Positions 30,477 through 57,165 of a stretch of DNA of 64,000 nt are shown in pieces. Made by a program: the position numbers and the translations under genes. Origin of the DNA: an uncultured delta proteobacterium (GTDB lineage Bacteria; Desulfobacterota; Desulfobaccia; Desulfobaccales; 0-14-0-80-60-11); assembly GCA_963705115.1 (NCBI GenBank), contig CAVPIX010000010.1, positions 1,165,461 through 1,229,460 on the forward strand, in the 5' to 3' direction. How positions within the stretch are numbered: the first letter of the stretch is position 1; each line of letters starts with the position of its first letter. The notes below the pieces were generated by a model that saw nothing but the letters and a program-made list of their open reading frames with translations, had not been told where the DNA came from and ran no database searches.

Positions 30477-32315
30477 ATGCACATTATGGCACGGTGGAAC
30501 CCTGAACGGCGGCTATTGGATCACGAGCACTCAAAATTCTGGAAGTATCGGCTGATGGAGGTGGAAGAACCCAACCTGATGCGGGATATTTTCCCTTATA
30601 ACGAGTTAGCCCGTATTGATTTCGACCACAAATTCGTCATGCCCAGTCCGGCTGAGGAGATGCTCATCACGGATACCACTTTCCGGGATGGCCAGCAGGC
30701 CCGGCCGCCCTATACGGTGCGGCAGATAGTGGAGATCTTCGACATGCTCCACAAACTTTCGGGGCCCAAGGGGATCATCCGCCAGACCGAATTTTTCCTG
30801 TACAGCGCCAAGGACAAAGAGGCGGTGGAACGGTGCCGGGAGCGGGGGTATCTCTTTCCGGAGGTCACCGGCTGGATCAGGGCCCACGCCGCCGACCTGA
30901 AGCTGGTCAAAGAAATGGGCCTGACGGAAACCGGGATTCTCACCTCGGTGTCCGACTACCATGTGTTCATGAAATTGAAGTGGAACCGGCGCCAGGCCAT
31001 GGAGGATTATCTGGCCATCGTCAAGGCCGCCCTGGAGTTGGGCATTGTCCCCCGGTGCCACTTCGAGGACATCACCCGGGCGGACATCTACGGCTTTTGC
31101 GTGCCCTTCGCCATTGAACTCATGAAGCTGCGGGAAGAAAGCGGCATCGATATCAAGATGCGCCTGTGCGACACCATGGGCTACGGCGTGCCCTATCCCG
31201 GCGCGGCCCTGCCCCGGAGCGTCCCTAGGCTCGTGCGGGCCATGATCGAGGATGCCGGCGTCCCCGGCCACCTCATGGAATGGCACGGCCACAACGACTT
31301 TCACAAGGTCTTTGTCAACGGCGTCACCGCCTGGCTCTTCGGCTGCGGCGCGGTGAACGGCACCCTGCTGGGCTTTGGCGAACGCACCGGCAACTCCCCC
31401 ATTGAAGCGCTGCTTATGGAATACATCAGCCTCAGGGGCACCACTGACGGTATCGATACCACGGTGATCACGGACATGGCCCAGTATTTCGAGCGGGAAT
31501 TGCACTATAAAATTCCCCCCAATTTCCCCTTCGTGGGCGCCAGCTTCAATGCCACCAGCGCCGGCATCCATGCCGACGGCATGCAGAAGTTCGAGGAGAT
31601 CTACAACCCCTTCGACACCACCAAGATCCTGAAGCGCCCTCCCACCATTTCCATTACGGACAAATCGGGGAAGGCCGGCATCGTCCATTGGCTCAATACC
31701 CGCCTGGGGCTGACGGGGCCCACCCAGGTGGACAAGGTGCACCCCGGGGTCGGGAAAATCAACAAGCGCATCATGGAGATGTACGATGACGGGCGGGTGA
31801 CCTCTATCGCCAATGAAGAAATGGAGACCCTGGCCCGCAAGTATCTGCCCGAGCTCTTCATTTCCGAGTTCGACCGCTTGAAGCATAAGGCCCGGGAACT
31901 GGCGGCCCAACTGGCCCAGGACCTGGCCGACAACGAAAAAATCCGGACCATGCAGCCGGAGCTCCAGGAGCCGGTCCTGATGAAGGCCCTGGAAAAAAAT
32001 CCCTTTATCCAGTTCATGTACATCACCAACCTGGAAGGCCGGAAGATCACGCGCAACATCACCCATATTGTGCACCGGGCCAAATTCGAGACCGCGGGCC
32101 TGGATGAGAACCTGTCCAACCGGGATTGGTTCATAGAACCCCTGAAAACCGGCAGGATTTACGTGTCGGATTTTTACACCTCCCGGTTCACCGGGGCCCT
32201 GTGCATCACGGTGAGCGCGCCCATCCGGGACGAAAATGAAGAAATCCAGGGGGTTTTGGGTCTGGATATTCGCTTCGAAGACATGGCCAAGATGGAGCAG
32301 AACGGCGAGATATAG
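30477..32315 (+). CDS. HMGL-family (homocitrate/isopropylmalate/Re-citrate synthase-like) enzyme fused to a C-terminal Cache/PAS-like domain
   Basis: ITDTTFRDGQQ, HxH (EWHGHNDF), GERTGN motifs. The last ~110 aa (FIQFMYITNLEGRK...WFIEPLKTGRIYVSDFYTS...VLGLDI) look like a Cache sensor fold. Confidence 0.7.
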   Translation: MHIMARWNPERRLLDHEHSKFWKYRLMEVEEPNLMRDIFPYNELARIDFDHKFVMPSPAEEMLITDTTFRDGQQARPPYTVRQIVEIFDMLHKLSGPKGIIRQTEFFLYSAKDKEAVERCRERGYLFPEVTGWIRAHAADLKLVKEMGLTETGILTSVSDYHVFMKLKWNRRQAMEDYLAIVKAALELGIVPRCHFEDITRADIYGFCVPFAIELMKLREESGIDIKMRLCDTMGYGVPYPGAALPRSVPRLVRAMIEDAGVPGHLMEWHGHNDFHKVFVNGVTAWLFGCGAVNGTLLGFGERTGNSPIEALLMEYISLRGTTDGIDTTVITDMAQYFERELHYKIPPNFPFVGASFNATSAGIHADGMQKFEEIYNPFDTTKILKRPPTISITDKSGKAGIVHWLNTRLGLTGPTQVDKVHPGVGKINKRIMEMYDDGRVTSIANEEMETLARKYLPELFISEFDRLKHKARELAAQLAQDLADNEKIRTMQPELQEPVLMKALEKNPFIQFMYITNLEGRKITRNITHIVHRAKFETAGLDENLSNRDWFIEPLKTGRIYVSDFYTSRFTGALCITVSAPIRDENEEIQGVLGLDIRFEDMAKMEQNGEI

Positions 32316-32378
32316 TCTGGCCGGCAACACCGGGGAGAAACCCCTCTCCCCCCTCATATCACCGCACGAGGTAGCCAC

Positions 32379-34046
32379 ATGGATGATCTGCAGAAATTGC
32401 AAGATGCTAAGGCCAAGTATGATGCCCAAGTGGACAAGGTGCTGAAAAAGATACCGGAGCGCAAGGCGGAGTTCCTCAACACCTCCGGCATCCCCGTCAA
32501 CCGGGTCTATACCCCCTTGGATATGAAAGATTTCGATTATCTCAAGCAGTTGGGCATGCCGGGTCAGTATCCCTTTACCCGGGCGGTGCAGCCCACCGCC
32601 TACCGGGGCCGCTACTGGACCATGCGCCAGTACGCCGGCTTCGGCACCGCGGAGGAGACCAACGAGCGCTACCACTTCCTCCTGAAATCCGGCCAGACCG
32701 GCCTGTCGGTGGCCTTTGACCTCCCCACCCAGATCGGCTACGACTCCGATCACGAGTTGGCCCAGGGCGAGGTGGGCAAGGTGGGGGTGGCCATCGACTC
32801 CCTCTGGGACATGGAACGCCTCTTTCAGGGCATCCCCCTGGACCAGGTGTCCACCTCCATGACCATCAACTCCCCCTGCGCCGTCATCCTGGCCATGTAC
32901 CTGGCGGTGGCCCAAAAGCAGGGGGTGAGCTTCGACAAACTCAGGGGCACGGTCCAGAACGACATCCTCAAAGAGTACCCGGCCCGGGGCACCTATATCT
33001 TCGGCCCCCGCAAATCCATGCGCCTGATTACCGACATTTTCGCCTACTGCACCGACCACGTGCCCCAGTGGAACACCATCAGCATCAGCGGCTACCACAT
33101 CCGGGAGGCCGGCTCCACCGCGGTGCAGGAAGTGGCCTTCACCCTGGCCAACGGCATTGCCTATGTAGACGCGGCCATTGCCGCGGGGCTCAAGGTGGAC
33201 GAGTTCGGGCCCCGGCTTTCTTTCTTCTTTAACTCCCATCTGGATTTCCTGGAAGAAATCGCCAAATTCCGGGCGGCAAGGCGGCTGTGGGCCAAGATCA
33301 TGGTTGACCGCTTTAAGGCCGAGGACCCCCGCTCTCAGATGCTGCGCTTCCACACCCAGACCGCGGGCTGCTCTCTCACGGCCCAGCAGCCCTTAAACAA
33401 CATCACGCGCACCGCGTTTGAGGCCATGGCCGCGGTCCTGGGCGGCACCCAGTCCCTGCACACCAATTCCTTCGACGAGGCCCTGGCCCTGCCGTCGGAG
33501 TTGGCGGTGCAGGTGGCCCTCAAGACCCAGCAGGTCATTGCCTACGAAACCGCGGTGTCTGACACGGTGGACCCCCTGGCCGGCGCCTATTACGTGGAAT
33601 ACCTCACCGACCAGATCGAAGCCCGGGCTCAGGATTACATCGACCAGATCGACAAAATGGGCGGCGCGGTGGCGGCCATCGAAAAGGGCTTCATCCAAAA
33701 AGAGATCGGCGACAGCGCTTACCGCTATCAGCGGGAAATCGAGAAAAACGAGCGCATCGTGGTGGGTCTCAACAAATTCCAGGTCAAGGAAGAAGAAAAG
33801 CCCAAGGACCTTCTCAAGGTGGACCCCCAGGTAGGCGACAAGCAGTTGGCCCGCCTCAAGGAACTGAAGAGCACCCGGGACAACGGCGCCGTCAAGCAGG
33901 CCCTGGCCGAACTCAAGAGCGCCGCGGAGGGCACCGGCAAACTCATGCCCCCCATTTTAAAGGCGGTGACGGCCCTGGCCACCCTGGGCGAAATCTGCGA
34001 CACCCTGCGGTCCGTCTGGGGCGAATACGAGATGACGGTGATGTAA
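32379..34046 (+). CDS. B12-dependent acyl-CoA (methylmalonyl-CoA family) mutase, large catalytic subunit
   Basis: [36 protein letters not shown]...[11 protein letters not shown]. Confidence 0.9.
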
Positions 34047-34047
34047 G

Positions 34048-34333
34048 AGCTTTAAGCTGTAGGCCATAGGCTGTAAGCTTTAGGCTTTAAGCGTCCTCTT
34101 ACAAAATGTAGCCACGGGCGAGAGCCTCTCGCCTGCACAGGCTGGAAAGCCTGTGCCACCGGGTGTTGATTTAATATCGCTCATGAAAAATCGTTTGTTT
34201 TCTTTTTTTTTACCGTGAAAATCCCCCGTAGGGGCGACGCATGCGTCGCCCCTACAACAGATTTTCGTCTTCGGGGGGCCCAACTCGGGTCATAAAGGTT
34301 TAGCTTAAAGCTTATGGCTTAAAGCTTATAGCT
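34048..34333. mobile_element. MITE-like composite repeat between the mutase subunit genes
   Basis: AGCTTTAAGC-type terminal arms (34048-34092 and 34298-34333, inverted) flank GCACAGG..CCTGTGC and GTAGGGGCGACGCATGCGTCGCCCCTAC hairpin modules. Confidence 0.6.
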
Positions 34334-34341
34334 AAAGGAGA

Positions 34342-34752
34342 TTGATCATGCAGGAAACACGCAAAATCAGGGTATTGGCCGCCAAACCGGGCCTGGACGG
34401 TCATGACCGGGGCATCAAGGTCATCTGCGCGGCCCTTAGGGACGCGGGCATGGAAGTGATCTACACGGGCCTCCGACAGACTCCGGAACAAATCGTCAGC
34501 GCCGCGGTCCAGGAAGACGTGGACGTCATTGCCATGAGCTGCCTCTCCGGGGCTCACGGCTATCTTTTCCCCAAGGTCATGGAAATCCTCAAGGGCAAGG
34601 GCATCAGCGACATCCTGGTCCTGGGGGGCGGCATCATCCCCGAGGAAGACGTCCCCGGTCTCAAGACCGCCGGCATTGCCGAGATTTTCACCCCCGGCAC
34701 CGACACCAACGACATCGCCAAGTATATCCGGGGAAATATCCGCAGGAACTAA
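34342..34752 (+). CDS. acyl-CoA mutase small subunit (B12-binding domain)
   Basis: [15 protein letters not shown] cobalamin-binding DxHxxG motif. Confidence 0.9.
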
Positions 34753-34766
34753 CGTTGCAATTCAAA

Positions 34767-34792
34767 GGGGGTGGAGATTTTTCTCCACCCCC
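34767..34792. terminator. strong GC hairpin between convergent genes, possibly a bidirectional terminator
   Basis: GGGGGTGGAG-attttt-CTCCACCCCC. T-tracts on both sides are weak. Confidence 0.4.
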
Positions 34793-34975
34793 ATGACTTC
34801 ATTAAAATTGTCAGTTCCTGTGCCTTCCTGCGTTTGTCCTTCGGACTCCTTTTGCCCTGACAGCAGGTTTTACCTCGTTCCCAAGTTGAACTTGGGAACG
34901 AACATGGATTTCAAGCTCAGCTTGGCTCCTAGTAGCATTTCCAAGCCAAGCTTGGGAATAAGAAGAAAGTATGTG

Positions 34976-37633
34976 TTACGACGCCGCTTTTTCTCCGTAA
35001 GTCCTCTTGACCAATTCCATCTCCTCCCGCTTGCTCTGGATTACCTCGTTGAGCCTGGCTTCATGCAGCATGGTGAGAATATCCCTGATTTGCGGCCCGG
35101 GCTGAAAACCCAGGGCAATGAGGTCCCGCCCCTTGAGTTCCGGTTTCAAATGCTTGAGGTGGGTGAAGTACAGGGAGATGAGCCGCTTTGAGTGTCCCTG
35201 ACGGGACTTGGCCATCATATAGAGCAAAAACTCCGTGGGTATGGGGGAGAGCAAGCGGTAAATCTGACTGCGGCTGGGCTCCCCCTGGCGGAAGAGTTTC
35301 AGGAGGGCCTGGTCCGCAGTTTCTTTGCCCTCCAGGATGGCTGCGGCCAGCCTGGGCGGGGTTTTGAAACGGTCCAGCAGTTCCCGAAGTTCCTCAGGGG
35401 TGAGGGGCTCCACCAGCCCCAGGAAATAGACCAGCCAGCGCTCGAATTTTTCCTCCAGATAGGAAAGGTCCATCCAGGCAAGCACCGCCTGGACCCGCTC
35501 CAGCATTTTTCTGGTGCCCTCATCGAACCATAACCGGGGATGAATGGCCTTGAGAAGGTCCAACTCCGCCAGACGGGCAATGGCCGGAATGGGGCTTCCC
35601 TCGTGCAGGATAAGTTCCAGCTCGTGGAAAAGGCGCGCCCCCGAGAGGCGGTCAAAAAAGTTGTTCTTGACCGCATTGTTGATCAGGTTGATGGTGAGCT
35701 TGCTGATGCGGAAGCCGAAACGCTGCTCGAAGCGGATGGCCCGGAAGACCCGGGTGGGATCCTCCACAAAGCTCAGGTTGTGGAGCACGCTGATGCGCCG
35801 TTCCTTCAGGTCCCGGTGGGCCCCGAAAAAGTCCAACAGGGTGCCGAATTCTTCGGGGTTGAGCTTCAAGGCCAGGGTGTTGATGGTGAAGTCCCGGCGG
35901 AACAGATCCATTTTGATGGAGCTGTATTCCACCACCGGCAGGGCCCCCGGCGCGTCGTAATACTCGGTGCGGGCCGTGGCCACGTCCACCTTGAAGTCAT
36001 CCGGAAAAATGATCACCGCGGTCTTGAACTTCTGAAAGACTCGGGCCCGGGCCCCATACCGGGCCGCGAAGGTCTTGGCGAAAACAATGCCGTCCCCTTC
36101 GACCACGAGATCAATGTCCAGGTTTTCTTGCTTGATGAACAGGTCCCGGACAAAGCCTCCCACCACATAAGCGTGGTAGCCCAGCTCCTTGGCCACCTCC
36201 CCCGCCTGGGCCAGAATGGTGAGGATCTTTTTGGGCAGCCGCTCCCGCATGAGGCTGTTGATATTTTTTTTGCGCAAGGGTTGGGACCACTGGGTCTCTT
36301 CGGTCTCCTCGCTGATGTCGATGAGGAGGTTCAGGAGGTCGGTGCGGCTGATGACGCCCACGACCTCTTCCTCCTGGAGCACCGGCAGCAAACGCTGTTT
36401 GTGGACCACCAGTTTGTCACGAATCTCCGCCAGGGTATCTTCGGGGCCCACCGTGGCCACCGGTGTGCTCATGTAGTCCTTGACCGGGTGGTCCTTGAGC
36501 CCGTGGAAAATGCCTTTTTCCACAGTTTGCCGGGATATCAACCCTAACAGCCTGGCATCCTCCACCACCGGCAGGGCGTTGATGCTGTAACGGTTGAGGA
36601 CGAGTTCAGCGCCTTCCAGGGAGACTTCCGGAGACACCGATTTCACCGGGAAGCTCATGAGGTCCTTGGCCCGGCGCAGGGGCCGCACCCGCCGGTTGAT
36701 GATCTGCTTGAGATTTTCCTCCACCTGGGCCAGGGGCTTGTCCTTGATAGCCGCGGAGGCTGCGAATTCATGGCCGCCGCCCCCCATTTCCGCCAGGATC
36801 TCCCCCACATTGACCTCAGGGAGGCGGCTGCGGCCCACAATAAAAACCCGGTCCTCCATCTGGGCCAGGGCGAAAAGGACCTCAAGATTTTCCATGTCCA
36901 TGAACTTGTGGGCCAGAACGGCGAAATCAGCCACATACTGAGAGGCCATGGTCCGGGCCAGGACCACCTCGATGCCGTCCACCGTGAAGCGGTTGGCATT
37001 GGCGATGAGATCGTTCAGCAGGGCCACCTGCTCCACGGTGAGTTCCCGGGTGACCATCTGGGCCACCACGTTGAGGTCGGCCCCGTGGCGCAGCAAATAC
37101 GCGGCCGCCTCAAAGTCCTCTGGTGTGGTGGAGGAGAAGGTGAAGGAGCCGGTGTCCTCGAAGAGGCCCAGGGCCATGATGGTGGCCTCCTGGGGGGTGG
37201 GGTCCAACTCCTTCTCCCGCAAAATTCTGGTGAGGATGGCGGTGGTGGAGCCCAGGGGCTCTACGAGTTCCACGCTGCCGTGGAGGTCCTCCGGGGAGTC
37301 GGGGTGGTGGTCGTAAATGTGGATATCCACTTCGCCGGAGGCGGCGGCTTCGGCGAATTTGCCGATGCGGGAAACCTGGCGGGTGTCCACCAGGATGAGG
37401 CGCTTGATTTCATCTGGGTCCACATTTTTGGCCCGGGCAAAATCCAGGAAATAAAAGCTGGAGCGGATGAAAAAGTCCCGAAGATTTCCCTCCTGAGCCC
37501 CGGGAAACACCAGCAGGGCCTCAGGGTAGAGCTTTTTGGCGGCCACCATGGAGGCCAGGGCGTCGAAATCCGCGTTGAGGTGCGTGGTGATCACCTCCAG
37601 GGTGCGGCGGGCGGGGGGCTGGTTTTTGCTCAT
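34976..37633 (-). CDS. multidomain DHH/DHHA1 - CBS pair - tRNA nucleotidyltransferase/poly(A) polymerase family protein
   Basis: N-terminal DHH motifs ([15 protein letters not shown]), tandem CBS, then [10 protein letters not shown]...DIDLVVEGD polymerase-beta head domain. Confidence 0.8.
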
Positions 37634-38905
37634 GACCGGGGATGGGCCTTTTTGTGGGCCGATTTCAGGCGTTCGGCGTCAAGATGGGTGTAAATCTGGG
37701 TGGTGGCCAAATCCGCGTGCCCCAACAAAAGCTGCAGCACCCGGAGATTGGCGCCGCGCCCCAGAAGATGCGTGGCAAAGGAATGGCGCAGGGTATGGGG
37801 GGAGATGCGCCCCAGTCCGGCCACCCGGGCATGGCGCTGCAAGATCTTCCAAAACCCCTGGCGGCTCAAGCCGCTGCCCCGTTGATTGACGAACAAGATA
37901 GGGGCTGTTTTTCCCCTTGAGGAGTTGGGGCCGGCCCTCTTTGAGATATAGTTTGAGCTTTTCCACGGCTTGGGGCACCATGGGGACCAGGCGCTCCTTG
38001 TGCCCTTTCCCCAGGGGCCGCACCACCCCCCGGCGCAGGTCCACCTGTTTTAAGGTCAGGCCCACGAGCTCCGAGACCCGGAGACCGGTGGCATAAAGCA
38101 CTTCCAACAGGGCCGCGTCCCGCTGGCCTTGGGGGGTGGAGGGGTCCACCGCACCCAGCAGCGCCGCCACTTCCTGTTCGTTCAGCACCTGGGGGAGCTT
38201 CAGGGGGAGCCGCGGGGAGTCCAAAAGCTCCACCGGGTTGGTGGGAAGGCGCTCTTCCCGCTGCAAAAAGCGGAAAAACTGGCGCAGGGCCGACAGGCGC
38301 CGGGCCCGGCTGCGGGCCGACAGACCCCGGGATTGGAGAGCAGTCAGATAGTTCTGAAAATCCTCCAGGCTCGCCTCTTCCCAGGCCTCCTTCTTGAGGG
38401 AGCGCAGAAATTCCCGGAAATCCTGCAAATCGTGGGCATAGGACTCGAGAGTCAAAGGCGCCAGACCCCGCTCCGCGCCCAGGTGGTGGTAAAACTGCTC
38501 CAGGAGCTCGTCCATGTAGTCGGGGCCGGCGGCCTTAAGCCCGGACAACAGGGCCTGGAGTTCGGTCTGGCTCAACACCTGGGAGGGGGCCGGATCCTGG
38601 TCCGGCCAAGGGAGCGCGGCCAGGGGATTTTCCGTAATTATCCCTTGCTCCCCGAGAAACCCGAAAAACCGCTGGAGCGCCAGCCGTTGCTGCTCCAGAT
38701 GCCGCAGGGAGAAGTCCTGGCGGGTGAGATCCTCGAAATAGGCCCGGCAATCGTTAGGCGTCACTTCCGGCCAGCGGCTCCGGCCTTTTTCCTGGACAAA
38801 GGAGGAGAAATGCTGCAGATCCTGCTCCCAGGCCTCAAGGTAGGAAGCGGGCAGATCGGGGTCGTTCTGAACCTGCTGAAAAAATTGGCGAAGGATGCTG
38901 TCCAT
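37630..38905 (-). pseudogene. XerD/XerC-like tyrosine recombinase with an extra N-terminal core-binding-like domain, interrupted by a +1 frameshift
   Basis: ORF 37679..38905 ends in-frame sense at ...KGKNSPYL. The catalytic end [12 protein letters not shown]...[12 protein letters not shown]...[14 protein letters not shown] is in ORF 37630..37896. The extra base is near 37897. Confidence 0.75.
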
Positions 38906-39024
38906 AGCCTGGAGTCTTTCTTATTTTCCGTTTTCATTATACCCTTAAATCACCGGATTGGCATAGTGACGGATATAGAAAGAGACCTCTCCAATATGCC
39001 GTTTGGGGGGGGAGGGTCAAGGAC

Positions 39025-39053
39025 GTAGGGGCGGGTTTAAAACCCGCCCCTAC
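39025..39053. repeat. 29-nt perfect palindrome GTAGGGGCGGGTTTAAAACCCGCCCCTAC
   Basis: Read directly. Member of the GTAGGG...CCCTAC family. Confidence 0.85.
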
Positions 39054-39347
39054 CTACCCCCTTCCCGAAAACCTTCTCCCCACCTGTATAATATTCCGGT
39101 AGCCCGGGCATCTTGCCCGAGGCGGCACGGGCTGGAAGCCCGTACTACCGCTCTATGTGATGGGCAGCTATGGTGCGAAAGATGCACCCTATGTTAATAT
39201 TTTCATGGTGTTTGGTGGCCGCCAGGACCATGAATGGCTTCCCAAGGGGAAGTTTGGAAACCGGAGGAGGTCGGTAGGTCGGGCCTCCGTGCCCGCCTCG
39301 AGAAGCCGCTCAGAATAAGATAGGGCGGGCGCTCTCCGGCAAATAAT

Positions 39348-39368
39348 GGTGGGCAGTGCCCACCCTAC
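39348..39368. repeat. GGTGGGCAGTGCCCACC-CTAC palindromic module
   Basis: Read directly. Related copies at 49303-49323 and 20595-20620. Confidence 0.8.
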
Positions 39369-39442
39369 GTTACTCAATACTCGCAGATTTTCAAGACAGT
39401 TATTCATGAGCCTTTGGCTCACCCCTAAACCATAGGAAAGTC

Positions 39443-39512
39443 GTGGGGCGGGCGTCCCCGCCCGCCATCCTGGTGCGCAGTGCGCACCCTACATCTTCTT
39501 TGAACCTTGAAC
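39443..39512 (+). repeat. 70-nt composite repeat (two palindromes plus a GAACYTTGAAC tail)
   Basis: Its reverse complement matches 46429-46498 with 4 mismatches by manual comparison. Confidence 0.85.
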
Positions 39513-39542
39513 TATGAACTTTGAACTTTTCGGAACAGCATC

Positions 39543-40307
39543 ATGACCACTCTAATCTACGGTAGGCAGCCGGTTTTGGCGGCCCTGCGTCGGGTTGACG
39601 CCCCCCTGGAGGAGGTCCTGGTGGCCGAAGGTCTGGGAGGGCGAACCTTCGCCGAAGTGCGTGACCTGGCCCGGGCCGCCGGGGTGCGCCTGAAGCAGGT
39701 GCCCCGGTCCGCGTTGGACCGCCTGTGCCGCACCGCCAACCACCAGGGGCTGGCGGCCCGGCGGGCGGAATTTGTCTATCAGGACCTGGAGGAGTTGCTG
39801 TCAGGGCTTGGCGACCGGCAGGAACCTGCCCTCCTGGTGGTGGCCGATTCTCTCATGGATCCCATGAACCTGGGCAACCTCTGCCGCAGCGCGGTGGCCG
39901 CCGGGGCCCACGGCCTCATCATTCCCAAGGACCGGGCCGCCGGAGTGACCCCGGCCGTCATCAAGGCCGCGGCCGGGGCCCTGGAGGTTCTGCCGGTCTG
40001 CCGGGTCACCAACCTGGCCGAGACCCTCAAGCGCCTGAAGGAGGCTGAACTTTGGGTGGCGGGGGCCGAGGCCGGGGCCGCGCAAAGTATTTATGAGGCT
40101 GACCTCACCGGACCTCTGGCCTTGGTCATCGGCGGCGAAGACACCGGCATCCGCCCCCGGGTGCGCCAGCAATGCGACCTCCTGGTCTCCATCCCCTTAG
40201 CTTCCGAAGCCGTAAGTTCCCTCAACGCCGCCGCGGCCGGAGCCGTGGTTCTCTTCGAAATCCGGCGCCAGCGCCTGGAGAAACTGGGGGGAGGGCCAGG
40301 GACCTGA
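39543..40307 (+). CDS. rlmB: TrmH-family 23S rRNA 2'-O-methyltransferase (RlmB-like)
   Basis: IYGRQPVLAAL N-terminus and SpoU methylase motifs (NLGNLCRSA, LVIGGEDTGI, SLNAAAAGAV). Confidence 0.85.
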   Translation: MTTLIYGRQPVLAALRRVDAPLEEVLVAEGLGGRTFAEVRDLARAAGVRLKQVPRSALDRLCRTANHQGLAARRAEFVYQDLEELLSGLGDRQEPALLVVADSLMDPMNLGNLCRSAVAAGAHGLIIPKDRAAGVTPAVIKAAAGALEVLPVCRVTNLAETLKRLKEAELWVAGAEAGAAQSIYEADLTGPLALVIGGEDTGIRPRVRQQCDLLVSIPLASEAVSSLNAAAAGAVVLFEIRRQRLEKLGGGPGT

Positions 40308-40849
40308 GGTCTCTGCTCTCCCCCCAGGCCTCCCCTCCCAACCCGCAGAGTGGGCTGGCAAGTCGGGGCTCGAAGCCCCGAATACCAGCCTTTCTTTTTG
40401 CCCTTGAGGGGTTGATGGAGAGGATTCGGAAGAGGGGTCAGAGGACTGCGACCCGGTATTGAGGGGTGGGCCCTGGCCACCATGAATTATTAAACGGAAA
40501 GGCTGGCTTATATCCAGATATCTTTTAGTTAGCAACTATTCTTGCTTCGCTCCCGCTAAAATTATGGTAATCTATCGGTCAACCAGAGGGTTAGAGGCGG
40601 AGTTTCTTCCTATGTTCGGGGGCGGTTTGGTTTTGTGGCCTCCACTTTTTATCTGGTGAAACACCGCCGGACAATGTTAGGATTGAGGGTAAGACTTGAA
40701 TTAAGGTAGGATCTTTTTATTTCCAAGTATTATTGTTACGGAGCATCGATGTAAAAAATACTAATTTATTATTTACCTAATGTTGGAGAGCCATTTTATA
40801 ATCAGCTGTCCGATATAATTTGAAAAAATTAATATTGTGGAGGGATAAA

Positions 40850-42697
40850 GTGGAAAAAATGCAAATTAAAGGGGCAAGAACTAATAATGAGTCGCTGCTC
40901 AACTGGATTAAGACGACAGTTGAGTTATGTAAACCGGATCATGTCTATATTTGTGACGGTTCCCAGGAGGAATACGACAAACTTTGCAATCAAATGGTCG
41001 AAAGCGGAACCTTTTTTCGCCTGAATGAGGCAAAGCGTCCGAACAGTTTTCTCAGCTGCTCAGACCCAAAAGATGTGGCACGGGTGGAAAGCCGCACCTA
41101 TATTTGCTCCCTTAATAAATCCGATGCAGGACCCACGAACAATTGGATGAATCCTGCGGAAATGAAAGAAAAATTGCAGGTTCTGTTTAACGGCTGTATG
41201 CGCGGGCGAACCATGTACGTCATTCCTTTCAGCATGGGACCCTTGGGTTCTCCTATTGCCCATATTGGCATAGAGATTACGGATTCCCCTTATGTGGCGG
41301 TAAATATGCGGATTATGACACGGATGGGGCAGGCTGTGCTTGATGTTCTGGGCGAAAAGGGAGCCTTTGTACGATGTCTGCACTCGGTGGGAGCCCCATT
41401 GGAGCCAGCCCAAAAGGATGTGCCCTGGCCGTGCAATCCTGATAACACCTATATCACCCATTTTCCAGAAGAACGGGCCGTTTATTCTTTTGGGAGCGGT
41501 TATGGGGGTAATGCTCTTTTAAGTAAGAAGTGTTTTGCGCTCAGGATTGCTTCGGTCATGGCCCGGGATGAAGCCTGGATGGCTGAACATATGTTGGTTT
41601 TGGGAGTTGAGACTCCTGAAGGCGAAAGAACCTATGTGGCAGGGGCTTTCCCCAGCGCTTGCGGGAAAACCAACTTTGCTATGCTGGTTCCTCCCAAGGG
41701 ATTTGAAGATTGGAAGATCTTCACCGTGGGTGACGACATTGCGTGGATTAAACCCGATCAGGATGGAACTCTTAGAGCCATCAATCCTGAGGCAGGATTT
41801 TTTGGAGTTGCTCCGGGTACTTCAATGAAATCAAACCCCAATGCCATGTTGGCTTTGGCCAAGAATTGCATCTTTACCAATGTAGCCCTCACGGATGACG
41901 GTGATGTGTGGTGGGAAGGTATGACTGATGAACCCCCGGCTCATTTGATTGACTGGAGGGGACAGGATTGGACTCCGGATTGCGGTCGGTTGGCAGCTCA
42001 CCCGAATGCGCGGTTTACTGCGCCAATCACTCAGTGTCCAACGTTCGATCCTGAATGGGATAACCCCAAAGGTGTGCCCATTAAGGCATTCATTTTCGGC
42101 GCCCGGATGAGTAAACATGTTCCCCTGGTATTTGAAGCCTTCAACTGGTCTCATGGGGTGTATCTGGCTGCGACAATGGCTTCTGAGGCTACGGCCGCGG
42201 CGGAAGAAGGTCTGACCATGAGGAGGGATCCCATGGCGATGCTGCCGTTTTGTGGCTACAACATGGCCGACTATTGGAACAACTGGTTAAATATTGGGCG
42301 ACTTTTGGCCAATCCGCCGCGGATTTTCCGGGTGAATTGGTTTAGAAGGGATGAGCACGGCAAGTTTATCTGGCCGGGATTTGGCGAAAACATGCGGGTG
42401 CTGAAATGGATTGCTGATCGAGTGCGTGGTAAGGGCTATGGCGTAGAAAGCCCTCTGGGGTTTATGCCACGCCATCAAGACATCCACTGGGAAGGGTTGG
42501 CATTCGATCCGGATAAGTTCTACGAACTTATGGCGGTAGACCGGGAAAATTCAGCGAAAGAAGCAAGATCCCATGAGGAGCTGTTCGATAAGTTTTTTGA
42601 TCGTCTCCCCAAAGAGTTTGTTTACCATCGAGAACTGTTTAAATCGCGAGTATGGCGCTCGCCCGAGATATGGGAGTTAGCAAGGGTAATCTTCTAA
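40850..42697 (+). CDS. pckG: GTP-dependent phosphoenolpyruvate carboxykinase
   Basis: FPSACGKTN kinase-1a motif and full-length PEPCK-GTP pattern. GTG after GGAGGG (alternative ATG at 40859). Lower GC than surroundings. Confidence 0.9.
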
Positions 42698-42779
42698 AGG
42701 GGATGATCACCTTATGGCGCTCCACTTTTTCCCGGAAGAGGCGGGCGTAAACCTCCGCCGGTAAAGTCATTTTAATCTG

Positions 42780-43187
42780 CCCGAAGAGGTTGCGGGCGAA
42801 GAAGTTCTGCCAGGCCTGGGTGGTGATTACCCGGATGGGAATACGGTGTACGGGGTCGGCCCCGGCGTAACAGTCTTGGATGAACAGCTCCCGCCCCTGG
42901 AGGAAAGCCAGCAGCCGGACGTGCAGGATGTCGAACTTTTCCGGAGCCATGGAGCAGTTCTGTTCTCCCCAGGCGATGTGGTGGGCGCTGGTGGGCTCAT
43001 AGACGATAAACTTGTCCTTGGGGGAGCGCCCGGTGTAGGCGCCGGTGCGCACTACTACCGGCCCCAGATGGGCAATGAGGCCCTCCTGCCGGTAAACGAT
43101 CTTTTCGTACAGGGCTGAGGTGGTGAGGTTCCAGAGCACTGCCGCCACGTTTTTGATGCCATGCTGCTCTATGTTATGAGATGACAT
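42780..43187 (-). pseudogene. pckA: N-terminal remnant (~135 aa) of ATP-dependent PEP carboxykinase PckA
   Basis: LGPVVVRTGAYTGRSPKDKFIV...LFIQDCYAGADPVHRIPIRVITTQAWQNFFARNLF aligns to the PckA N-terminus. All nucleotide-binding and catalytic parts are absent. The ORF then runs into antisense pckG. Confidence 0.75.
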
Positions 43188-43313
43188 GCTGAATTCCCTC
43201 GGGCGTGAAATCAAGATAACCTATGGATATCGCAAAAGAGATTGTGAAATTGTACTATAACGGCCACTAGGTCAGAGCATATTTCCCCGGTTTTAGGGGA
43301 GCTTGAGACCGTT

Positions 43314-44441
43314 GTGACAAAAATGATGACTGCCATATTCCAGCAAACAATCATGGGGATGTCCCTCGGGACTTTAGCCCAGTCCCTCCGGCGCAACCAG
43401 GGGCGGGTGTACTGGCGCTACCTCCCTCGCCTGGCCTTCCTGGCGGCCCTGGCTGGGTTCAACTCCTATGTGAGACTCTTTGAAAAGGCCATGAACGGCG
43501 ACAACATCGCCAGGGCCGAGTTGGCGGGGCCCCCCGTCTTTATCCTGGGATACTGGCGCAGCGGCACCACCCATCTGCATAATCTTTTGAGCCTGGATCC
43601 GGCCTTCACCTGTCCCACCGCTTACCAGGTGATGTTTCCCCATCACTTTGTCTACAGCCAGCCCTGGGGCGTGAAACTGTTCAATTATCTGTCCCCCGGC
43701 AAAAGGCCCATGGACAACGTGGCCTTTTACGGCAACACCCCCCATGAAGAAGAGATGGCCCTGGCCGCGCTCACCGGCGTCTCCCCCTATATGCGGGTTC
43801 TTTTCCCGGAGACGGCCAGCGGCGGCTACTCCGCGGTGGACCCGGGCCAACTGCCCCCCGGGGCGCTGGCGGAGTGGCAGGACGCCTTCCGGCTGTTCAT
43901 GAAAAAACTGAGCTTTTCCAAGGGGAAGCGCATTGTGCTGAAATCGCCCCCGCATTTAGGGCGCATATCCCTATTGCTGGACATGTTTCCCGGTGCCAAG
44001 TTCGTCCACATCACCCGCAACCCCTACGAGGTCTATCAATCTTTTCAGAAAAACTGGCGCCGCGGCCACGCCCTCTCCCATCTCCAGAAGCCCGATCCCC
44101 AGGTTATTGATGAGGTCATCCTGTCCTGGTATAAGCAACTGTTTGCCCTGTATGAGCGCGATCGGCGGCAGATCCCGCCGGGGCGCCTGTGCGAACTGCG
44201 CTTTGAGGACCTGGAGAAAAAACCTCGGGAATGCCTGGAAAAAATTTATCAGGAGTTGAGGCTGCCGGGCTTTGAGGGTTTTTGGGCCAAGGCCTCGGTT
44301 TACCTGGAGGGCCTGGCGGATTATCGAAAAAACACCTACACCCTGACGGCAGAGGTCCGGGACAAGGTGAACCGGCACTGGGGCTTTAACTTCGAGCGCT
44401 ACGGTTATCCCCTGCTGCCGCCTGGGACCCCTGGGCAGTAA
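43314..44441 (+). CDS. PAPS-dependent sulfotransferase family protein, copy 1
   Basis: YWRSGTTHLHNLL (5'-PSB loop) and KSPPHLGRI...RNPYEVYQS. True start may be the internal Met at 43359. Confidence 0.75.
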   Translation: MTKMMTAIFQQTIMGMSLGTLAQSLRRNQGRVYWRYLPRLAFLAALAGFNSYVRLFEKAMNGDNIARAELAGPPVFILGYWRSGTTHLHNLLSLDPAFTCPTAYQVMFPHHFVYSQPWGVKLFNYLSPGKRPMDNVAFYGNTPHEEEMALAALTGVSPYMRVLFPETASGGYSAVDPGQLPPGALAEWQDAFRLFMKKLSFSKGKRIVLKSPPHLGRISLLLDMFPGAKFVHITRNPYEVYQSFQKNWRRGHALSHLQKPDPQVIDEVILSWYKQLFALYERDRRQIPPGRLCELRFEDLEKKPRECLEKIYQELRLPGFEGFWAKASVYLEGLADYRKNTYTLTAEVRDKVNRHWGFNFERYGYPLLPPGTPGQ

Positions 44442-44444
44442 AAT

Positions 44445-44505
44445 GGTGGCACAGGCTTTCCAGCCTGTGCAGACGCAGGCTTAGCCTCGCGGCTACAAAA
44501 AATAG
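44445..44505. repeat. GCACAGGCT-ttcc-AGCCTGTGC hairpin plus AGGCTTAGCCT and GCGGCTACAAAAAAT modules
   Basis: The same modules recur at 26640-26690, 34125-34160, 61915-61950 and 62055-62125. Confidence 0.7.
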
Positions 44506-44573
44506 CTCTGAGAACGCAAATCGTTTGGAATGGTGCGCATCAGGCACGAATAGGCGACTTTCGGCGAGAATTC

Positions 44574-45710
44574 ATGCAGTTGCAGTCTTTATCACTCCAG
44601 GCCGTCACCGGCATGAACTTCAGCACCTTGATGCGGGTGCTCCGGCGCAACCGGCTCCGGGTCCATTGGCGCTATTTCCCCCGGCTGGCGTATCTGCTGG
44701 TGTTGGGCTGCCTGAATTCGTATATCTCTCGCCTGGAAAAGGCCGCGGACGGGGCGGACATCGCCGCGACCGAGCTGGTGGACGCTCCCATTTTCATCCT
44801 GGGTTACTGGCGCAGCGGCACCACCCATCTGCACAATCTGTTGAGCTGCGACCCGAGCTTCACCTGCCCCACCTCATACCAAGCCATGACGCCCCACCAT
44901 TTTGTTTACAGTCAACCCTGGGGCTCCAAGATTTTTAATGCCCTGACCCCCGGCAAGCGCCCCATGGACAATGTGGCCATTAAAAGCGCCACGCCCCATG
45001 AGGAGGAGATGGGACTGGCCGGTCTGTGCGCCGTGTCCCCGTATATGCGGGCCCTTTTTCCCACCACCGGGGACAAGGCCTACTCCGCGGTGGACCCCGC
45101 CAAGCTCCCTGCCGGGGCCCTGGCCGATTGGCGGGCGGCCTTCCAGCTTTTCCTGAAAAAACTGACGTTTTCCAAGGGAAAGCGCATTGTGCTGAAATCG
45201 CCGCCGCACCTGGGGCGCATTCCCATCCTGCTGGAGATGTTTCCCCGGGCCAAGTTCATCCACATCGTGCGCAACCCCTACGCGGTCTATCTGTCTTCGC
45301 AAAAACTCTGGCGCCGGGGTTTGTCCCCTTCCCATCTGCAGGAAGCTGATCCCCAGGTCCTGGATGAGGTTATCCTCTCCTGGTACACGGAACTCTATGA
45401 GCTGTTCGAACGGGACAAAAGCCTGATTCCGCCCGGCTCCCTGGTTGAGCTGCGCTATGAGGACCTGGACAGCTCCCCCCGGCAGTGTCTGGAAAAGCTC
45501 TACACGGAACTGGGCCTGCCGGGTTTTGCGCGCTGTTGGGCGAGGGTGGGGGAGTATCTTAAGGGGTTGGGGGGCTACAAAAAGAACCGGCACCGGCTGA
45601 CGGAAGAAGACCGGGAGAAGGTGAGCCGGCGCTGGCGCTTCACCTTTGCCCGTTATGGCTACCCCCTGATCCCGCCTCTGGGCCGGGGGGAAGAGGTGCG
45701 CTTCAGCTAA
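44574..45710 (+). CDS. PAPS-dependent sulfotransferase family protein, copy 2 (tandem paralog)
   Basis: Same motifs as copy 1 and alignable end to end. True start may be at 44613. Confidence 0.75.
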   Translation: MQLQSLSLQAVTGMNFSTLMRVLRRNRLRVHWRYFPRLAYLLVLGCLNSYISRLEKAADGADIAATELVDAPIFILGYWRSGTTHLHNLLSCDPSFTCPTSYQAMTPHHFVYSQPWGSKIFNALTPGKRPMDNVAIKSATPHEEEMGLAGLCAVSPYMRALFPTTGDKAYSAVDPAKLPAGALADWRAAFQLFLKKLTFSKGKRIVLKSPPHLGRIPILLEMFPRAKFIHIVRNPYAVYLSSQKLWRRGLSPSHLQEADPQVLDEVILSWYTELYELFERDKSLIPPGSLVELRYEDLDSSPRQCLEKLYTELGLPGFARCWARVGEYLKGLGGYKKNRHRLTEEDREKVSRRWRFTFARYGYPLIPPLGRGEEVRFS

Positions 45711-46302
45711 CCGGGCTGATCTCCCGCCCCCGAGCCTCCTGGGTTTGGGGAGTCTCCCGCCTCTCAAGAATCAGTTCTTTATTTTCCAAAAAATCTAAAA
45801 TCTTAGCCAGGCTGGCCTCAATATCTTCCTGTTCGGTGAACACCAATACTTCCGGCGCTTCAGGTTCCTCATAGGGATCGGACACGCCGGTAAAATTGGT
45901 AATTTTACCGCTGCGGGCCTTGGCATAGAGACCGCGGCTGTCCCGGGATTCGGCCACCTCCACCGGACAGGAGCAGAAGACTTCGATATAATTGGCGATT
46001 TTCTCCCGGTTGTGTTCCCGGGTTTCCGCATAAGGGGTGATGGCCGCCACAATGCAGATCATCCCCTTGTCGTTTATGCTCTGGGCCAGGGAGCCCAGCC
46101 TGCGCCCATGGAGGTCCCGGTCCTCCTTACTGAAACTCAAGGGGCGGGGCAGTTGGGCCCGGATGGCGTCCCCATCCATGAGATGCACCTGCTGAGGATG
46201 GCCTTCTTTGAGATAATTGTAGAGACGGCGGGATAGCGTGGTTTTGCCTGAGCACGGCAAGCCGGTAAACCAGACGGTAAAACTCATGCGTGTCTTTCTC
46301 AC
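45703..46302 (-). CDS. cysC: adenylylsulfate (APS) kinase
   Basis: FTVWFTGLPCSGKTTL P-loop, DGDAIR, and C-terminal extension. Confidence 0.85.
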   Translation of the reverse strand: MRKTRMSFTVWFTGLPCSGKTTLSRRLYNYLKEGHPQQVHLMDGDAIRAQLPRPLSFSKEDRDLHGRRLGSLAQSINDKGMICIVAAITPYAETREHNREKIANYIEVFCSCPVEVAESRDSRGLYAKARSGKITNFTGVSDPYEEPEAPEVLVFTEQEDIEASLAKILDFLENKELILERRETPQTQEARGREISPVS

Positions 46303-46428
46303 CTTTCTTCTGGCCGAAATTCCCAGCCGGTTTGTTAACGTTTAAGGCTACCATATTGGGGGCCTGGTTGACAAGCCCGGGGTGTCAAAAGCCTGGAAAT
46401 CTGCCAATAAAGACATCTGTCCTGAAAA

Positions 46429-46498
46429 GTTCAAGGTTCAAAGAAGGTGTAGGGTGCGCACTGCGCACCAGGATGGCGGGCGGGGAGCCCCGCCCTAC
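46429..46498 (-). repeat. inverted copy of the 39443-39512 composite repeat
   Basis: See 39443-39512. Confidence 0.85.
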
Positions 46499-48452: not shown

Positions 48453-48920
48453 CTATTCACATTGCATGACGGTGGTGGCGGCCACGGTTATCTGATTGCC
48501 CAGAGTGGGAATAAAATTGTCCAGCACAAACCAGGTCTTGTTGGCGGCCACCCTCACTTCCAGGGGAGTGCCGGCGGTGCCCGTGGCGAATCCGGCTCCG
48601 GTCACCGTTACCTGGGGATTGGCGTCGGGGGGCATATAGGTTTGACTAAGATAATTATTGAGTATGTGGGCTTGGATCGACGGGGAATAGCTGCTCGGGG
48701 GCAGGCGTTGACCGGCAGCGTTGGTCTGGTATACGACGCCGTAACGGGCCCCCTCCCGGCTGGCGTTGGTGACCACTTGCCGCATGTAAAAAGCATGCCC
48801 CAGGTCCATGATCCCGGCGATGATCAGGCAAAAGACTAGGACTACGATCGCAAATTCCACCATCACAGCGCCTTTGGTTTCCCGGTAGCAATGACGTAAA
48901 ATGTGCAATATTTTCCTCAT
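48453..48920 (-). CDS. TadE-like protein
   Basis: GAVMVEFAIVVLVFCLIIAGI N-terminal TadE motif. Confidence 0.7.
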   Translation of the reverse strand: MRKILHILRHCYRETKGAVMVEFAIVVLVFCLIIAGIMDLGHAFYMRQVVTNASREGARYGVVYQTNAAGQRLPPSSYSPSIQAHILNNYLSQTYMPPDANPQVTVTGAGFATGTAGTPLEVRVAANKTWFVLDNFIPTLGNQITVAATTVMQCE

Positions 48921-49215
48921 GATAGTAATGCTCCCCTTCCTGTTTCGATTTCCTAAGTGATTAAAGACTACTACAAGATTTATGCCAAAATAATGAATTT
49001 TAGGGAAAATAATAACATACTGATATTGTTATAAATATAAAGTGAAGCCCTGATCTTTGTCTGGTAAAATCAAGACAATTTTCTTAAAGGGAAAGAAATT
49101 TTATTAAATACAGAGAAAGTTTCTTTAAAGATGAGGGAAGGGCAGGGCAAGACAGGCGGAAAATCTTCCGGGGCCGCATAATACCAATTTGATGTCAAAC
49201 ATAGAGTTAAAAATA

Positions 49216-49286
49216 GTCATTCTGAGGGAGCCGCAGGCGACTGAAGAATCTCTAAATACGAGATGCTTCGCTCCGCTCAGCATGAC
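49216..49286. repeat. GTCATTCTGAGGGAGC...GCTCCGCTCAGCATGAC inverted-repeat hairpin element
   Basis: Read directly. A related half-site GTCATGCTGAGCGAGG lies at about 56424. Confidence 0.7.
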
Positions 49287-49517
49287 AAGAAGACGTTAAA
49301 GTGTAGGGTGGGCACTGCCCACCAATTCCCTAGAAAAGATTCAGGTTCTGTAGGGTGGCCCAGGGAAATGCCAGGGGAAGCGCAGGTGACGCGTCCGGCT
49401 GTTTATTAAGCTTGTTCCAGGCCCCTCTCCGGTCTATGATAAGGGCTGGGTTGCAACGACGGAGGGCCTGCCCTCCTCACCCCGCAGGTTATCAGAAGAA
49501 CAGTGAGGGGTCCTGAC

Positions 49518-54702: not shown

Positions 54703-54879
54703 ATCGGCCCATAAACGTTTAGCCTACGCTTGGGCAAGGCAAGCCTTGCCCCTATAATCATTTGTCGCTTGACAGCAATCTCATGTTAGACACATTTTAG
54801 CCTAGAAGGCAGTAGGCCTTGTTGCTAACGTATTAATAACTATAATTCTTTCATCCTATAACAGAAAACGGTATTTAAA

Positions 54880-56373
54880 ATGCGCCGCTGGTTCCGAAAG
54901 AAAGACCACATACCTGAAGACCTGGACAATGAAGCCGTAATCTCCCTGGAGGAGGAGGCCCAGGAGGCTTTTCCCCCAGCCATGGAGGACGCCTCCGCGG
55001 CTCAAGAAATCCGGGAGTCAGGCCCCGATACGCCACCTCCTGCCGAGTCAATATCCCCAGAAGCCGTTTCTCTGTTAGAGGACGAATCCGAAGCCGCCGC
55101 GCCTGAGGCTGAAGCCGAAGCCCCGTCGTCCCGCCCCGGTTTTTTCCACCGCATGTTCCGCAAGGAGGCTCTCCCGGAGGAGACCGAGGCCCCCGAAGAG
55201 GAAATGCAGACGGGGATGGAGGTCCAGCCGGCGCCCGCCGCAGAGACCCCGCCGGTCAGGGAAACTTCTCCGGCTCTGGAAACCCAGTCAGTCATCGAGT
55301 CCCCGCCAACTATGGAGGTCCCACCGGTTATAGAATCCCCGCCAGTTGTAGAATCCCAGCCGCTGACGGCCCCTATTCCCCCCGAGCCCATCCTGGAAGA
55401 AGATGAGGACATAATTGATCTCCTGGATGAGCTGCCGGAGGATGCGCCCGGGGCGGCCGAGGTCAAGAAACGCCGGTTCCGCCGCTTCCGGGAGCGCCTG
55501 GTGCGCACCCGCCAAAGCCTGGCCGGGGGCCTGGAACGCCTTTTTCTGGGCCGCCGGGAGGTGGACGCCGATGTCCTGGATGAGCTGGAGGAAATGCTCA
55601 TCACCGCGGATTTGGGGGTGGACACCACCCTGCGCCTGGTGGAGGTCATCCGGGAGAAGGTCAAGCGCCGGGAGTTGAGCGACGCGGACCGCCTCAAGGA
55701 GGCCCTGCGGGAGGAAATGGTGAATATCCTCAGCGGGCCGCCGCCGCCGCCCCGCACAGCCACGCCCTGGGTGATCCTCATGGTGGGGGTGAACGGCGTG
55801 GGCAAAACCACCACCATCGCCAAGCTGGCGTATCGGGAAAGGCGCCTGGGACGCAATCCCATGCTTATCGCGGCTGACACCTTTCGGGCCGCGGCGGTGG
55901 AACAACTGGAGATTTGGGGTGAGCGGGTGGGGGCCCAGGTGGTCAAGCAAAAAACCGGGGCCGACCCCGCCGCGGTGGTCTTTGACGGGCTGGAGGCCGC
56001 CCTGGCCCGGGGCGTGGACACGGTGTTCGTTGATACCGCCGGCCGCCTGCACACCAAGGTGAACCTCATGGAGGAGCTCAAAAAGATTCACCGCACTGCC
56101 ACGAAAAAAATGGCCGGGGCGCCCCACGAAATTTTGCTTATCCTGGACGCCACCACCGGCCAGAATGCCCTGAGCCAGGCCCGCCTGTTCCACGAGGCCG
56201 TGGGGGTGACGGGCATTGTCCTCACCAAGTTGGACGGCACCGCCAAAGGGGGCATGGCCCTGGCCGTGTCTCATGAAACGGGCCTCCCCATCCGATACGT
56301 GGGAGTGGGGGAGGGCATGACCGATCTCCAGCCTTTCGACCCCGAGGCCTTTGTGGCCGCTATCCTGGATTGA
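54880..56373 (+). CDS. ftsY: signal recognition particle receptor FtsY with long acidic Pro/Glu-rich N-terminal region
   Basis: [34 protein letters not shown]. Confidence 0.9.
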
Positions 56374-56682
56374 AGGCAGATTGACAGCAAGGGGGCAGGA
56401 AGAATATCCTTCCCTTATAAGTGTCATGCTGAGCGAGGTCTCAAGCCCTGAGGGTCCGGAGCAAAGGGAAGCCCATCAAGGGGGTGATTTATCCTTTAAT
56501 ATTAGGGCCATAGTGGTCGCAAAAGATTTCTCTTATCCCCCTCACCCTCACCCTCTCCCCCCGAGAGGGAATTTAAGGAAAAAATTTTGCAGACCCTATA
56601 TTCATTGGCATAACGCCACAAGGTGCCAAGTTCCTCTTAACATTTTGCTGTTCACTCTTGTCCAACGCGGAAAGGCTGGTTA

Positions 56683-57165
56683 TTGAAAACCCTCACTTAC
56701 TCCACCTTCTGGCGCTATTGGGTTCCGCCCCTCATCTGGGCGCTAGTGATTATGGGCCTCTCCGGCGACCTGGGTTCGGGCCCGAAATCTTTCAATATTG
56801 TCAATTGGATAGTCTCCTGCATAGTCACGTTGGACCCTGAGGCCCTTTCCCTCCTGCACTTCCGCATTCGCAAGATGATGCATGTCATTTTCTACGGCGT
56901 GCTGTCGGTCCTCTGGTTTCGGGCTTTGATGGCTTCCTATCCCAGGCGTCTTTATGCCAACATCGCCCTGGCCCTGGGTTTATGCCTGGCGGTGGCGGCG
57001 GCGGATGAAGGGTATCAGTTTCTGTTTGCCTTTGCTTCTCGAACCGGAACCCTGGGGGATGTGGCCCTGGACATGGCCGGCGGGGTCCTTTTTCTGTTCC
57101 CCGCGGCGTCCTACTGGAAAAGAAAAAACCTGATTCCCTCCGAGTTTAAAGCCCCATTACCCTGA
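56683..57165 (+). CDS. VanZ-family membrane protein
   Basis: Four predicted TM helices and an HVIFYGVLS-like VanZ pattern. TTG start. Confidence 0.45.
   Translation: MKTLTYSTFWRYWVPPLIWALVIMGLSGDLGSGPKSFNIVNWIVSCIVTLDPEALSLLHFRIRKMMHVIFYGVLSVLWFRALMASYPRRLYANIALALGLCLAVAAADEGYQFLFAFASRTGTLGDVALDMAGGVLFLFPAASYWKRKNLIPSEFKAPLP

Follow-up and report, generated by a model that had tools for sequence, protein, structure and literature searches.

In the genome of an uncultured delta proteobacterium of the order Desulfobaccales, a sulfate reducer resembling Desulfobacca (assembly GCA_963705115.1, referred to as G000), the gene pckG for a GTP-dependent phosphoenolpyruvate carboxykinase (PEPCK) occupies the place of the non-orthologous pckA gene for the ATP-dependent enzyme, two fragments of which survive at its 3′ side. 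The locus was analyzed within a stretch of 64,000 nucleotides (nt) of contig CAVPIX010000010.1, called the window, to which all positions refer unless a locus of another genome is named. Relatives that are discussed individually carry the designations G001 to G007, G015, and G022. The physical replacement of pckA by pckG in situ is well supported. Direct evidence covers the anatomy and synteny of the locus and shows that pckG occurs only once in the genome and that the junctions are authentic. As an overall explanation, it is highly probable that an incoming pckG segment replaced pckA after this lineage had split from its sister species G003.

The pckG gene (40850..42697, forward strand, with the TAA stop codon at 42695–42697) is intact, codes for a protein of 615 amino acids (aa), and is the sole PEPCK gene of the genome. 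Both Pfam domains are found at full length in its product (PEPCK_N, E 2e-106, profile positions 1–218 of 218; PEPCK_GTP, E 1e-160, positions 1–354 of 357). The protein aligns end to end with GTP-PEPCKs of solved structure, such as 9e32 (E 2.4e-260, query residues 10–590), and also matches the 4wie/4rcg series, 2zci, and the rat and human cytosolic enzymes. The PEPCK-specific motif (residue 218), the kinase-1a P-loop FPSACGKTN (residue 267), and the kinase-2 motif GDDIAW (residue 294) line up with those of 9e32. An earlier note, made from the sequence alone, had recognized a complete GTP-type enzyme ending at 42697, and these alignments bear it out; the predicted activity is that of a GTP-dependent PEP carboxykinase (EC 4.1.1.32). 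Translation likely starts at GTG 40850 and not at TTG 40820, because the former yields 615 aa as in the homologues, lies 5 nt downstream of a GGAGGG motif (40839–40844), and agrees with an independent gene call of 615 aa in another assembly. Nearly all homologues have this length, and in a family alignment of the start regions their ATG aligns with GTG 40850.

Convergent to pckG lies a chimeric open reading frame (ORF) of 182 aa (42639–43187, reverse strand), which consists of PckA residues 1–139, residues 399–418, and 23 antisense codons. The first remnant (42770..43187, reverse strand) comprises codons 1–139 and thus the N-terminal domain including YTGRSPKDKF. It shares 86% nt and 91% aa identity over 139 aa with the orthologues in G002 and G003, and the fragment matches positions 2–123 of 465 of the Pfam family PEPCK_ATP (E 1e-38), so that the PckA N-terminus reported in the earlier note is genuine. 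The second remnant (42710..42769, reverse strand) contains 20 codons in frame, MTLPAEVYARLFREKVERHK, which represent residues 399–418 of the G002 PckA and are 92% identical in nt to positions 9355–9406 of the G002 locus L028. According to codon mapping against G002, both remnants are joined in frame by an exact deletion of 259 codons (777 bp), which took out GGTSYGGE, the P-loop GLSGTGKT, and DDEHGW. The remaining tail of the ORF (42639..42709, reverse strand; 23 codons and a stop) lacks PckA homology and reads antisense through the flank of the pckG cassette and the terminal 59 nt of the gene. The nucleotide-binding core and the C-terminal domain of PckA (codons 140–398 and 419–530 of the G002 orthologue) are missing, and judged by its sequence the ORF is a dead gene remnant and not a PckA. 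The antisense tail had been described correctly before, but homology was thought to end after about 135 aa and the second remnant was missed. Likewise, the proposal that the cassette deleted most of pckA holds for the 3′ end of the gene, which was replaced, but not for the catalytic core, which fell to a separate in-frame deletion.

The original arrangement is preserved in G002. Its locus L028 is collinear with the window from 30559 to 40282 and from 42770 to 46313, and exactly at the site of pckG and the remnants it carries a full pckA of 530 aa, convergent with the gene for a SpoU/RlmB-like rRNA 2′-O-methyltransferase. This SpoU gene forms the conserved left flank in the window (39543..40307, forward strand; Pfam SpoU_methylase and SpoU_sub_bind) and is collinear in G002, G004, G006, and G001. 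The conserved right flank consists of two tandem sulfotransferase genes (43314..45710, forward strand; Pfam Sulfotransfer_3), which are collinear in the same four genomes and in G003 and G007; the latter two encode pckA beside these sulfotransferases. Neither a second pckA nor a second pckG was detected in G000 (4.0 Mb, 20 contigs, 97% complete) by whole-genome searches and relaxed tblastn with the full PckA. The non-orthologous replacement suggested earlier is thus supported as an event in situ by the collinear G002 locus with its full pckA, by G003, which has pckA but no pckG, and by the absence of any other PEPCK from G000. An intact pckA in a relative and the lack of another copy elsewhere in the genome had both been named as checks, and both turned out as expected.

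The two ends of the inserted segment could be placed precisely. On the left, homology to G002 stops at 40282, inside the last SpoU codons, and a region at 40283..40480 follows that contains a copy of a palindromic repeat resembling repetitive extragenic palindromic (REP) elements and then a hairpin with a T-run (approximately 40363–40400); this region overlaps the last 8 SpoU codons. Next is an AT-rich leader or promoter region (40481..40849, forward strand), which would have arrived with pckG. Its part from 40481 to 40767 is unique, with no similarity to any available locus or to the rest of the genome, and from 40768 on the sequence is common to the region upstream of pckG in G004. Downstream of the stop codon, only 12 nt of 3′ flank (42698..42709, forward strand; AGGGGATGATCA) precede the right end of the cassette. 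They appear to be derived from the donor and are partly shared with the sequence that follows the pckG stop in G004. The right end lies at 42709/42710 in unique sequence and directly abuts pckA codon 418; the 3′ end of pckA (codons 419–530) and the original spacer are gone. No terminal inverted repeats or target-site duplication flank the cassette, where short matches occur at chance level only, and no transposase ORF exists between 40283 and 42770. Thus, inverted repeats, target duplication, a transposase or integrase, and an attC-like site, by which a transposon, insertion sequence, or integron cassette would be recognized, are all absent. No riboswitch or leader RNA was found upstream of pckG (Rfam, 39000–44000), where only sub-threshold miRNA-like hairpins on the REP palindromes appeared. 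No terminator follows pckG, and scans for promoter and terminator consensus sequences gave nothing above shuffled expectation.

Two further assemblies, reached via the protein cluster of the chimeric ORF, contain the same structure. The ENA MEGAHIT contig L147 spans window positions 39861–43299 at 99.4% identity and includes both junctions, and the Logan contig L146 from run ERR11561443 spans 41204–43579 at 99.8% identity and includes the right junction. Both differ from the window by single-nucleotide polymorphisms (SNPs) and therefore represent separate population variants with an identical arrangement. L147 shows 27 differences from the window, of which 12 fall within 225 nt of the AT-rich leader (40606–40830) and only four in the coding region of 1848 nt. 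Within the population, no other part of the cassette changes as fast as the leader.

The composition of the segment deviates from that of the genome. The GC content of pckG is 0.499 and that at third codon positions (GC3) is 0.52, compared with a genome GC of 0.582, a median GC3 of long ORFs of 0.73, and a GC3 of 0.87 in rpoB; pckG ranks among the lowest 2.6–3.5% of long ORFs by composition, and GC is 0.44 in the upstream stretch 40345–40858. However, in every member of the family pckG has a lower GC3 (0.55–0.79) than rpoB (0.80–0.87), and the 260 nt upstream of pckG are AT-rich in most members. A low GC and an AT-rich leader are typical of pckG across the family and only more pronounced in G000, whose copy has the most deviant GC3 of all. 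The low GC that had drawn attention to the gene is real as an observation, but it is weak evidence of a recent arrival.

The REP-like copy at the left junction (40283–40385 or up to about 40450, core 40285–40350) is G/C-rich and rewrites the last 8 SpoU codons. The repeat is abundant in G000, where blastn with 40283–40480 returned more than 225 matches and the 66-nt core has 113, of which 94 are at least 55 nt long, in both orientations. Copies are also present in G002, G004, and G005, and the one in the G002 spacer is in the opposite orientation. An apparent inversion of the spacer between SpoU and pckA in G000 versus G002 was rejected, as it merely reflects this multicopy element in differing orientations. 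Recombination mediated by the repeat was likewise dismissed as a general mechanism for this site, since the repeat is missing from the corresponding positions in G004, G006, and G001.

Across 41 relatives, 24 have only pckA, nine only pckG, three both genes, and five neither, a near mutual exclusivity (Fisher p = 0.0008, uncorrected for phylogeny). G003, G007, and G002 belong to the genomes with pckA only. In a nucleotide tree of RpoB the genus is monophyletic and G000 is the sister of G003 (support 100/98), with G007, G002, G004, (G001,G006), and G005 further out. In the pckG tree the copies of the family form a supported clade (95–99), which implies that the donor would not have been distant. 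Within this clade, G004 and (G006,G001) cluster as in the species tree and the G000 copy is outside; forcing the pckG copies of the genus into a monophyletic group costs 7.5 log-likelihood units, with p = 0.046 in the approximately unbiased (AU) test. The comparison of gene and species trees, which the earlier note had also proposed, thus separates the G000 copy from the genus cluster, but at borderline significance. In G000, G004, and G006 the gene occupies three loci that are unrelated to one another, and the loci closest to that of G000 are labelled Desulfobacca or Desulfobacterota. A plasmid as vector of pckG was considered and rejected, because the best plasmid matches are only 67% identical, cover the coding region only, and belong to pckG on an Azospirillum chromid. 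Neither the 41 relatives nor three metagenome contigs that contain short PckA ORFs offered another case of pckG beside a pckA remnant. Within the genus, pckA too has undergone duplication or transfer. G002 has two full-length copies, the syntenic one and a second that is only about 71% identical in nt, as well as a decayed N-terminal third copy (loci L028, L029, and L030, the last at 9420–9998 on contig C28 of G002), and G005 carries the divergent type only.

Taken together, the following course of events is proposed. In the lineage of G000, a Desulfobaccaceae-like species, a segment of about 2.2 kb would have been inserted at the resident pckA locus once this lineage had diverged from G003. 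It would have contained pckG, its own AT-rich leader, and the short 3′ flank. The mechanism was not transposition; illegitimate recombination, possibly anchored in the REP-like repeat, would have joined the segment and replaced the last ~112 pckA codons and the spacer toward the SpoU gene. The separate, exact in-frame deletion of 259 codons would account for the loss of the catalytic core of PckA. The presence of pckG probably made pckA dispensable, and for this reason the destruction of pckA could be tolerated. Because pckG is the sole PEPCK, the conversion of oxaloacetate to PEP is predicted to have switched from ATP to GTP dependence. Substitutions in the pckA fragment point to a recent inactivation. 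On the G000 branch 18 codons changed synonymously and five nonsynonymously, compared with 22 and four in the intact G003 gene on its own branch; this similarity suggests that, over the greater part of the period since the two species separated, purifying selection acted on the fragment.

Several observations weigh against this reconstruction. A single surviving state does not reveal the order of insertion and deletions. The junctions bear no mechanism-specific signature, including no useful microhomology, and the composition of pckG does not date its arrival, given the family-wide low GC3 and AT-rich leaders. G003 is 92% complete, so that the absence of pckG from this genome is not absolute, and the AU test of pckG monophyly is borderline. 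Among 5.8 billion proteins, no donor closer than 88% identity was found. The pckG copies of G000 and G004 share 84.7% nt and 88% aa identity, and the two genomes are similarly divergent (rpoB 88.7% nt, flanking genes 71–86%), which would fit vertical descent from an ancestor of the genus that had both genes. According to such a scenario, G003, G007, G002, and G005 lost pckG and the resident copy of G000 moved into pckA without any transfer. The species-like clustering of the G004, G006, and G001 copies, the low GC3 of pckG throughout the family, and the co-occurrence of both genes in G015, G022, and probably G001 are in line with this relocation. However, it would need at least three to four independent losses of pckG in the closest relatives and a chance landing on pckA, it leaves the position of the G000 copy outside the other genus copies and its extreme GC3 to be accounted for, and no remnant of pckG was found elsewhere in G000. 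We regard relocation as possible but doubtful. Horizontal transfer of pckG from an unsampled lineage related to G000 is somewhat favored over it by presence/absence parsimony, the position in the tree, the different locations in congeners, and a composition that deviates more than that of any other copy. The claim that pckG was acquired is therefore likely to be right, with the reservation that the gene belongs to a family-specific clade and differs from the G004 copy about as much as the genomes do.

The two lesions might also be unlinked if pckA had already decayed and pckG landed in its place later, because the site is a general hotspot. The gene content of this site varies among congeners (pckA, a SAM methyltransferase, or a radical-SAM/SPASM gene), the second pckA deletion is not adjacent to the insert, and the five relatives without any PEPCK indicate that a PEPCK-less interval is viable. 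Yet the pattern of purifying selection in the fragment equals that of the intact G003 gene and leaves little time as a pseudogene, the cassette directly abuts pckA codon 418, and a functional coupling is suggested by the fact that pckA and pckG rarely occur together. Unlinked events are thus improbable. Less probable still is a functional 182-aa ORF, either as a small protein made of the PckA N-terminal domain or as the origin of an antisense RNA that regulates pckG. Its frame is open, its internal deletion exactly in frame, its sequence 99% conserved in two other assemblies, and it overlaps the 3′ end of pckG in antisense. All nucleotide- and metal-binding motifs are gone, however, one in three deletions would preserve the frame by chance, and the conservation merely reflects strains that are 99.4–99.8% identical. 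Moreover, no comparable truncated PckA family was found, and other short PckA matches are pieces at contig ends or created by frameshifts. An assembly chimera, in which a low-GC piece with pckG from another organism was misjoined at the REP-like repeat, is effectively excluded. The left junction does lie at a multicopy repeat, and the assembly appears to be indel-prone, as its rpoB is frameshifted. But L147 and L146 show the same structure with SNP differences, the right junction is in unique sequence, and if pckG were foreign, the genome would be left without any PEPCK. In the rpoB region concerned (contig C16, 213510–214904; locus L116), the gene is open for only 637 aa and continues out of frame at both ends, compared with frames of 1380–1467 aa in relatives. 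Single-base frameshifts elsewhere in G000, in XerD-like and TadG-like genes, may be errors, too.

The replacement of pckA by the incoming segment took place in a slot, between the SpoU gene and the first sulfotransferase, whose content changes among congeners. This slot holds pckA in G002, G003, and G007, pckG and the pckA remnant in G000, a class I SAM (S-adenosylmethionine) methyltransferase gene in G006 and G001, and a radical-SAM/SPASM gene in G004; the intervals of these last three are found at L143, 4495–5676, L145, 1275–2546, and L144, 4151–5380. No trace of PckA was found in the slots of G004, G006, or G001. Turnover at this site may explain why pckG landed here. It is conceivable, although speculative and rather unlikely, that the slot acts as a recombination hotspot for recurrent single-gene, like-for-like swaps of pckA and pckG between related Desulfobaccaceae lineages, of which G000 would represent a recent one with both break points. 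The retained pckA promoter might then drive antisense transcription into pckG, and the terminator-less pckG might be read through into the sulfotransferase/APS (adenosine 5′-phosphosulfate)-kinase module.

Further features of the neighborhood were recorded in relatives and metagenomes. A XerD-like gene near the slot keeps its syntenic position in all congeners. On the contigs L148, L149, and L150 (JGI 3300076001 and 3300076801), two sulfotransferases, a radical-SAM/SPASM gene, pckA, SpoU, a XerD-like gene, and a DHH-CBS-PolyA_pol gene occur together, so that the slot contains a radical-SAM gene as well as pckA; the XerD-like protein is intact at 435 aa, and the slot of L148 contains DDE transposases. 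On all three, pckA is called in two to three pieces and the sulfotransferases are split as well, either by indel errors of long reads or by real decay; for the split pckA, indel errors are probably the cause. In G003, the 3′ flank of pckA (L033, 5690–7773) adjoins homologues of genes at window positions 54854–57261, about 12 kb further right, so that the gene order of G003 must differ from that of G000 and G002 by a rearrangement. The end of this G003 contig carries one copy of a 70-nt inverted repeat (window 39443–39512 and 46429–46498). A second dip in GC (0.38–0.43) in the window lies at 48800–49400, upstream of TadE/TadG-like genes.

The case is a clear instance of a known phenomenon, conceptually ordinary, and represents no new kind of system. 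Non-orthologous gene displacement was reportedly introduced as a concept by Koonin, Mushegian and Bork in 1996, and its variant at a conserved position, gene displacement in situ, is said to go back to Omelchenko et al. in 2003 (Genome Biol 4:R55). The term appears, and the paper by Omelchenko and colleagues is cited, in passages of PMC1779527 and PMC4455057. As in such displacements, an isofunctional non-orthologue is located in G000 where the replaced gene stands in relatives, the neighborhood is conserved, and one gene is left, pckG being the sole remaining PEPCK gene with a predicted function. The classical examples differ in that they mostly involve members of operons and were deduced from conserved operon structure, with nothing of the old gene left to see. 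In G000, two remnants of pckA and both break points are preserved, pckG and pckA converge instead of sharing an operon, and the incoming gene has its own leader. The classes of ATP-PEPCK (PckA, EC 4.1.1.49) and GTP-PEPCK (PckG, EC 4.1.1.32) are patchily distributed among bacteria. Both carry out the same interconversion of oxaloacetate and PEP and substitute for each other across lineages, consistent with the near exclusivity within this one family; unlike the general pattern, the switch can be assigned here to one branch at the species level and traced down to the nucleotide. Integration hotspots between conserved core genes have reportedly been described by Oliveira et al. in 2017 (Nat Commun). 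The slot resembles them in that the same core-gene interval harbors differing cargo in congeners, but it is small (one or two genes) and not delimited by an integrase, tRNA, or mobile element. Homology-facilitated illegitimate recombination, said to have been reported by de Vries and Wackernagel in 2002, offers a further parallel, because it combines integration with a deletion of resident DNA and leaves no signatures of transposases or site-specific recombinases; the REP-like repeat is a possible anchor. In contrast to that system, anchor homology is not traceable without the donor, and the repeat is missing in the slots of G004, G006, and G001. A link between Desulfobacca and PEPCK displacement was not found in the literature.

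As a rule, displacements are recognized only in retrospect, once the old gene has vanished altogether. In G000, pckA can still be made out nucleotide by nucleotide, the congener G002 supplies an intact syntenic counterpart, and the sister species G003 brackets the event in time. The locus thus provides a natural example for studying isofunctional gene replacement with its break points, without help from mobile elements, and with co-travelling regulatory DNA. It could also be used to ask why PEPCK types are patchy and how fast redundant genes are dismantled. If read-through from pckG into the adjacent module did occur, it would couple the expression of gluconeogenic and sulfation genes. For the organism itself, the metabolic annotation changes, as the PEPCK step is predicted to be GTP-dependent instead of ATP-dependent.

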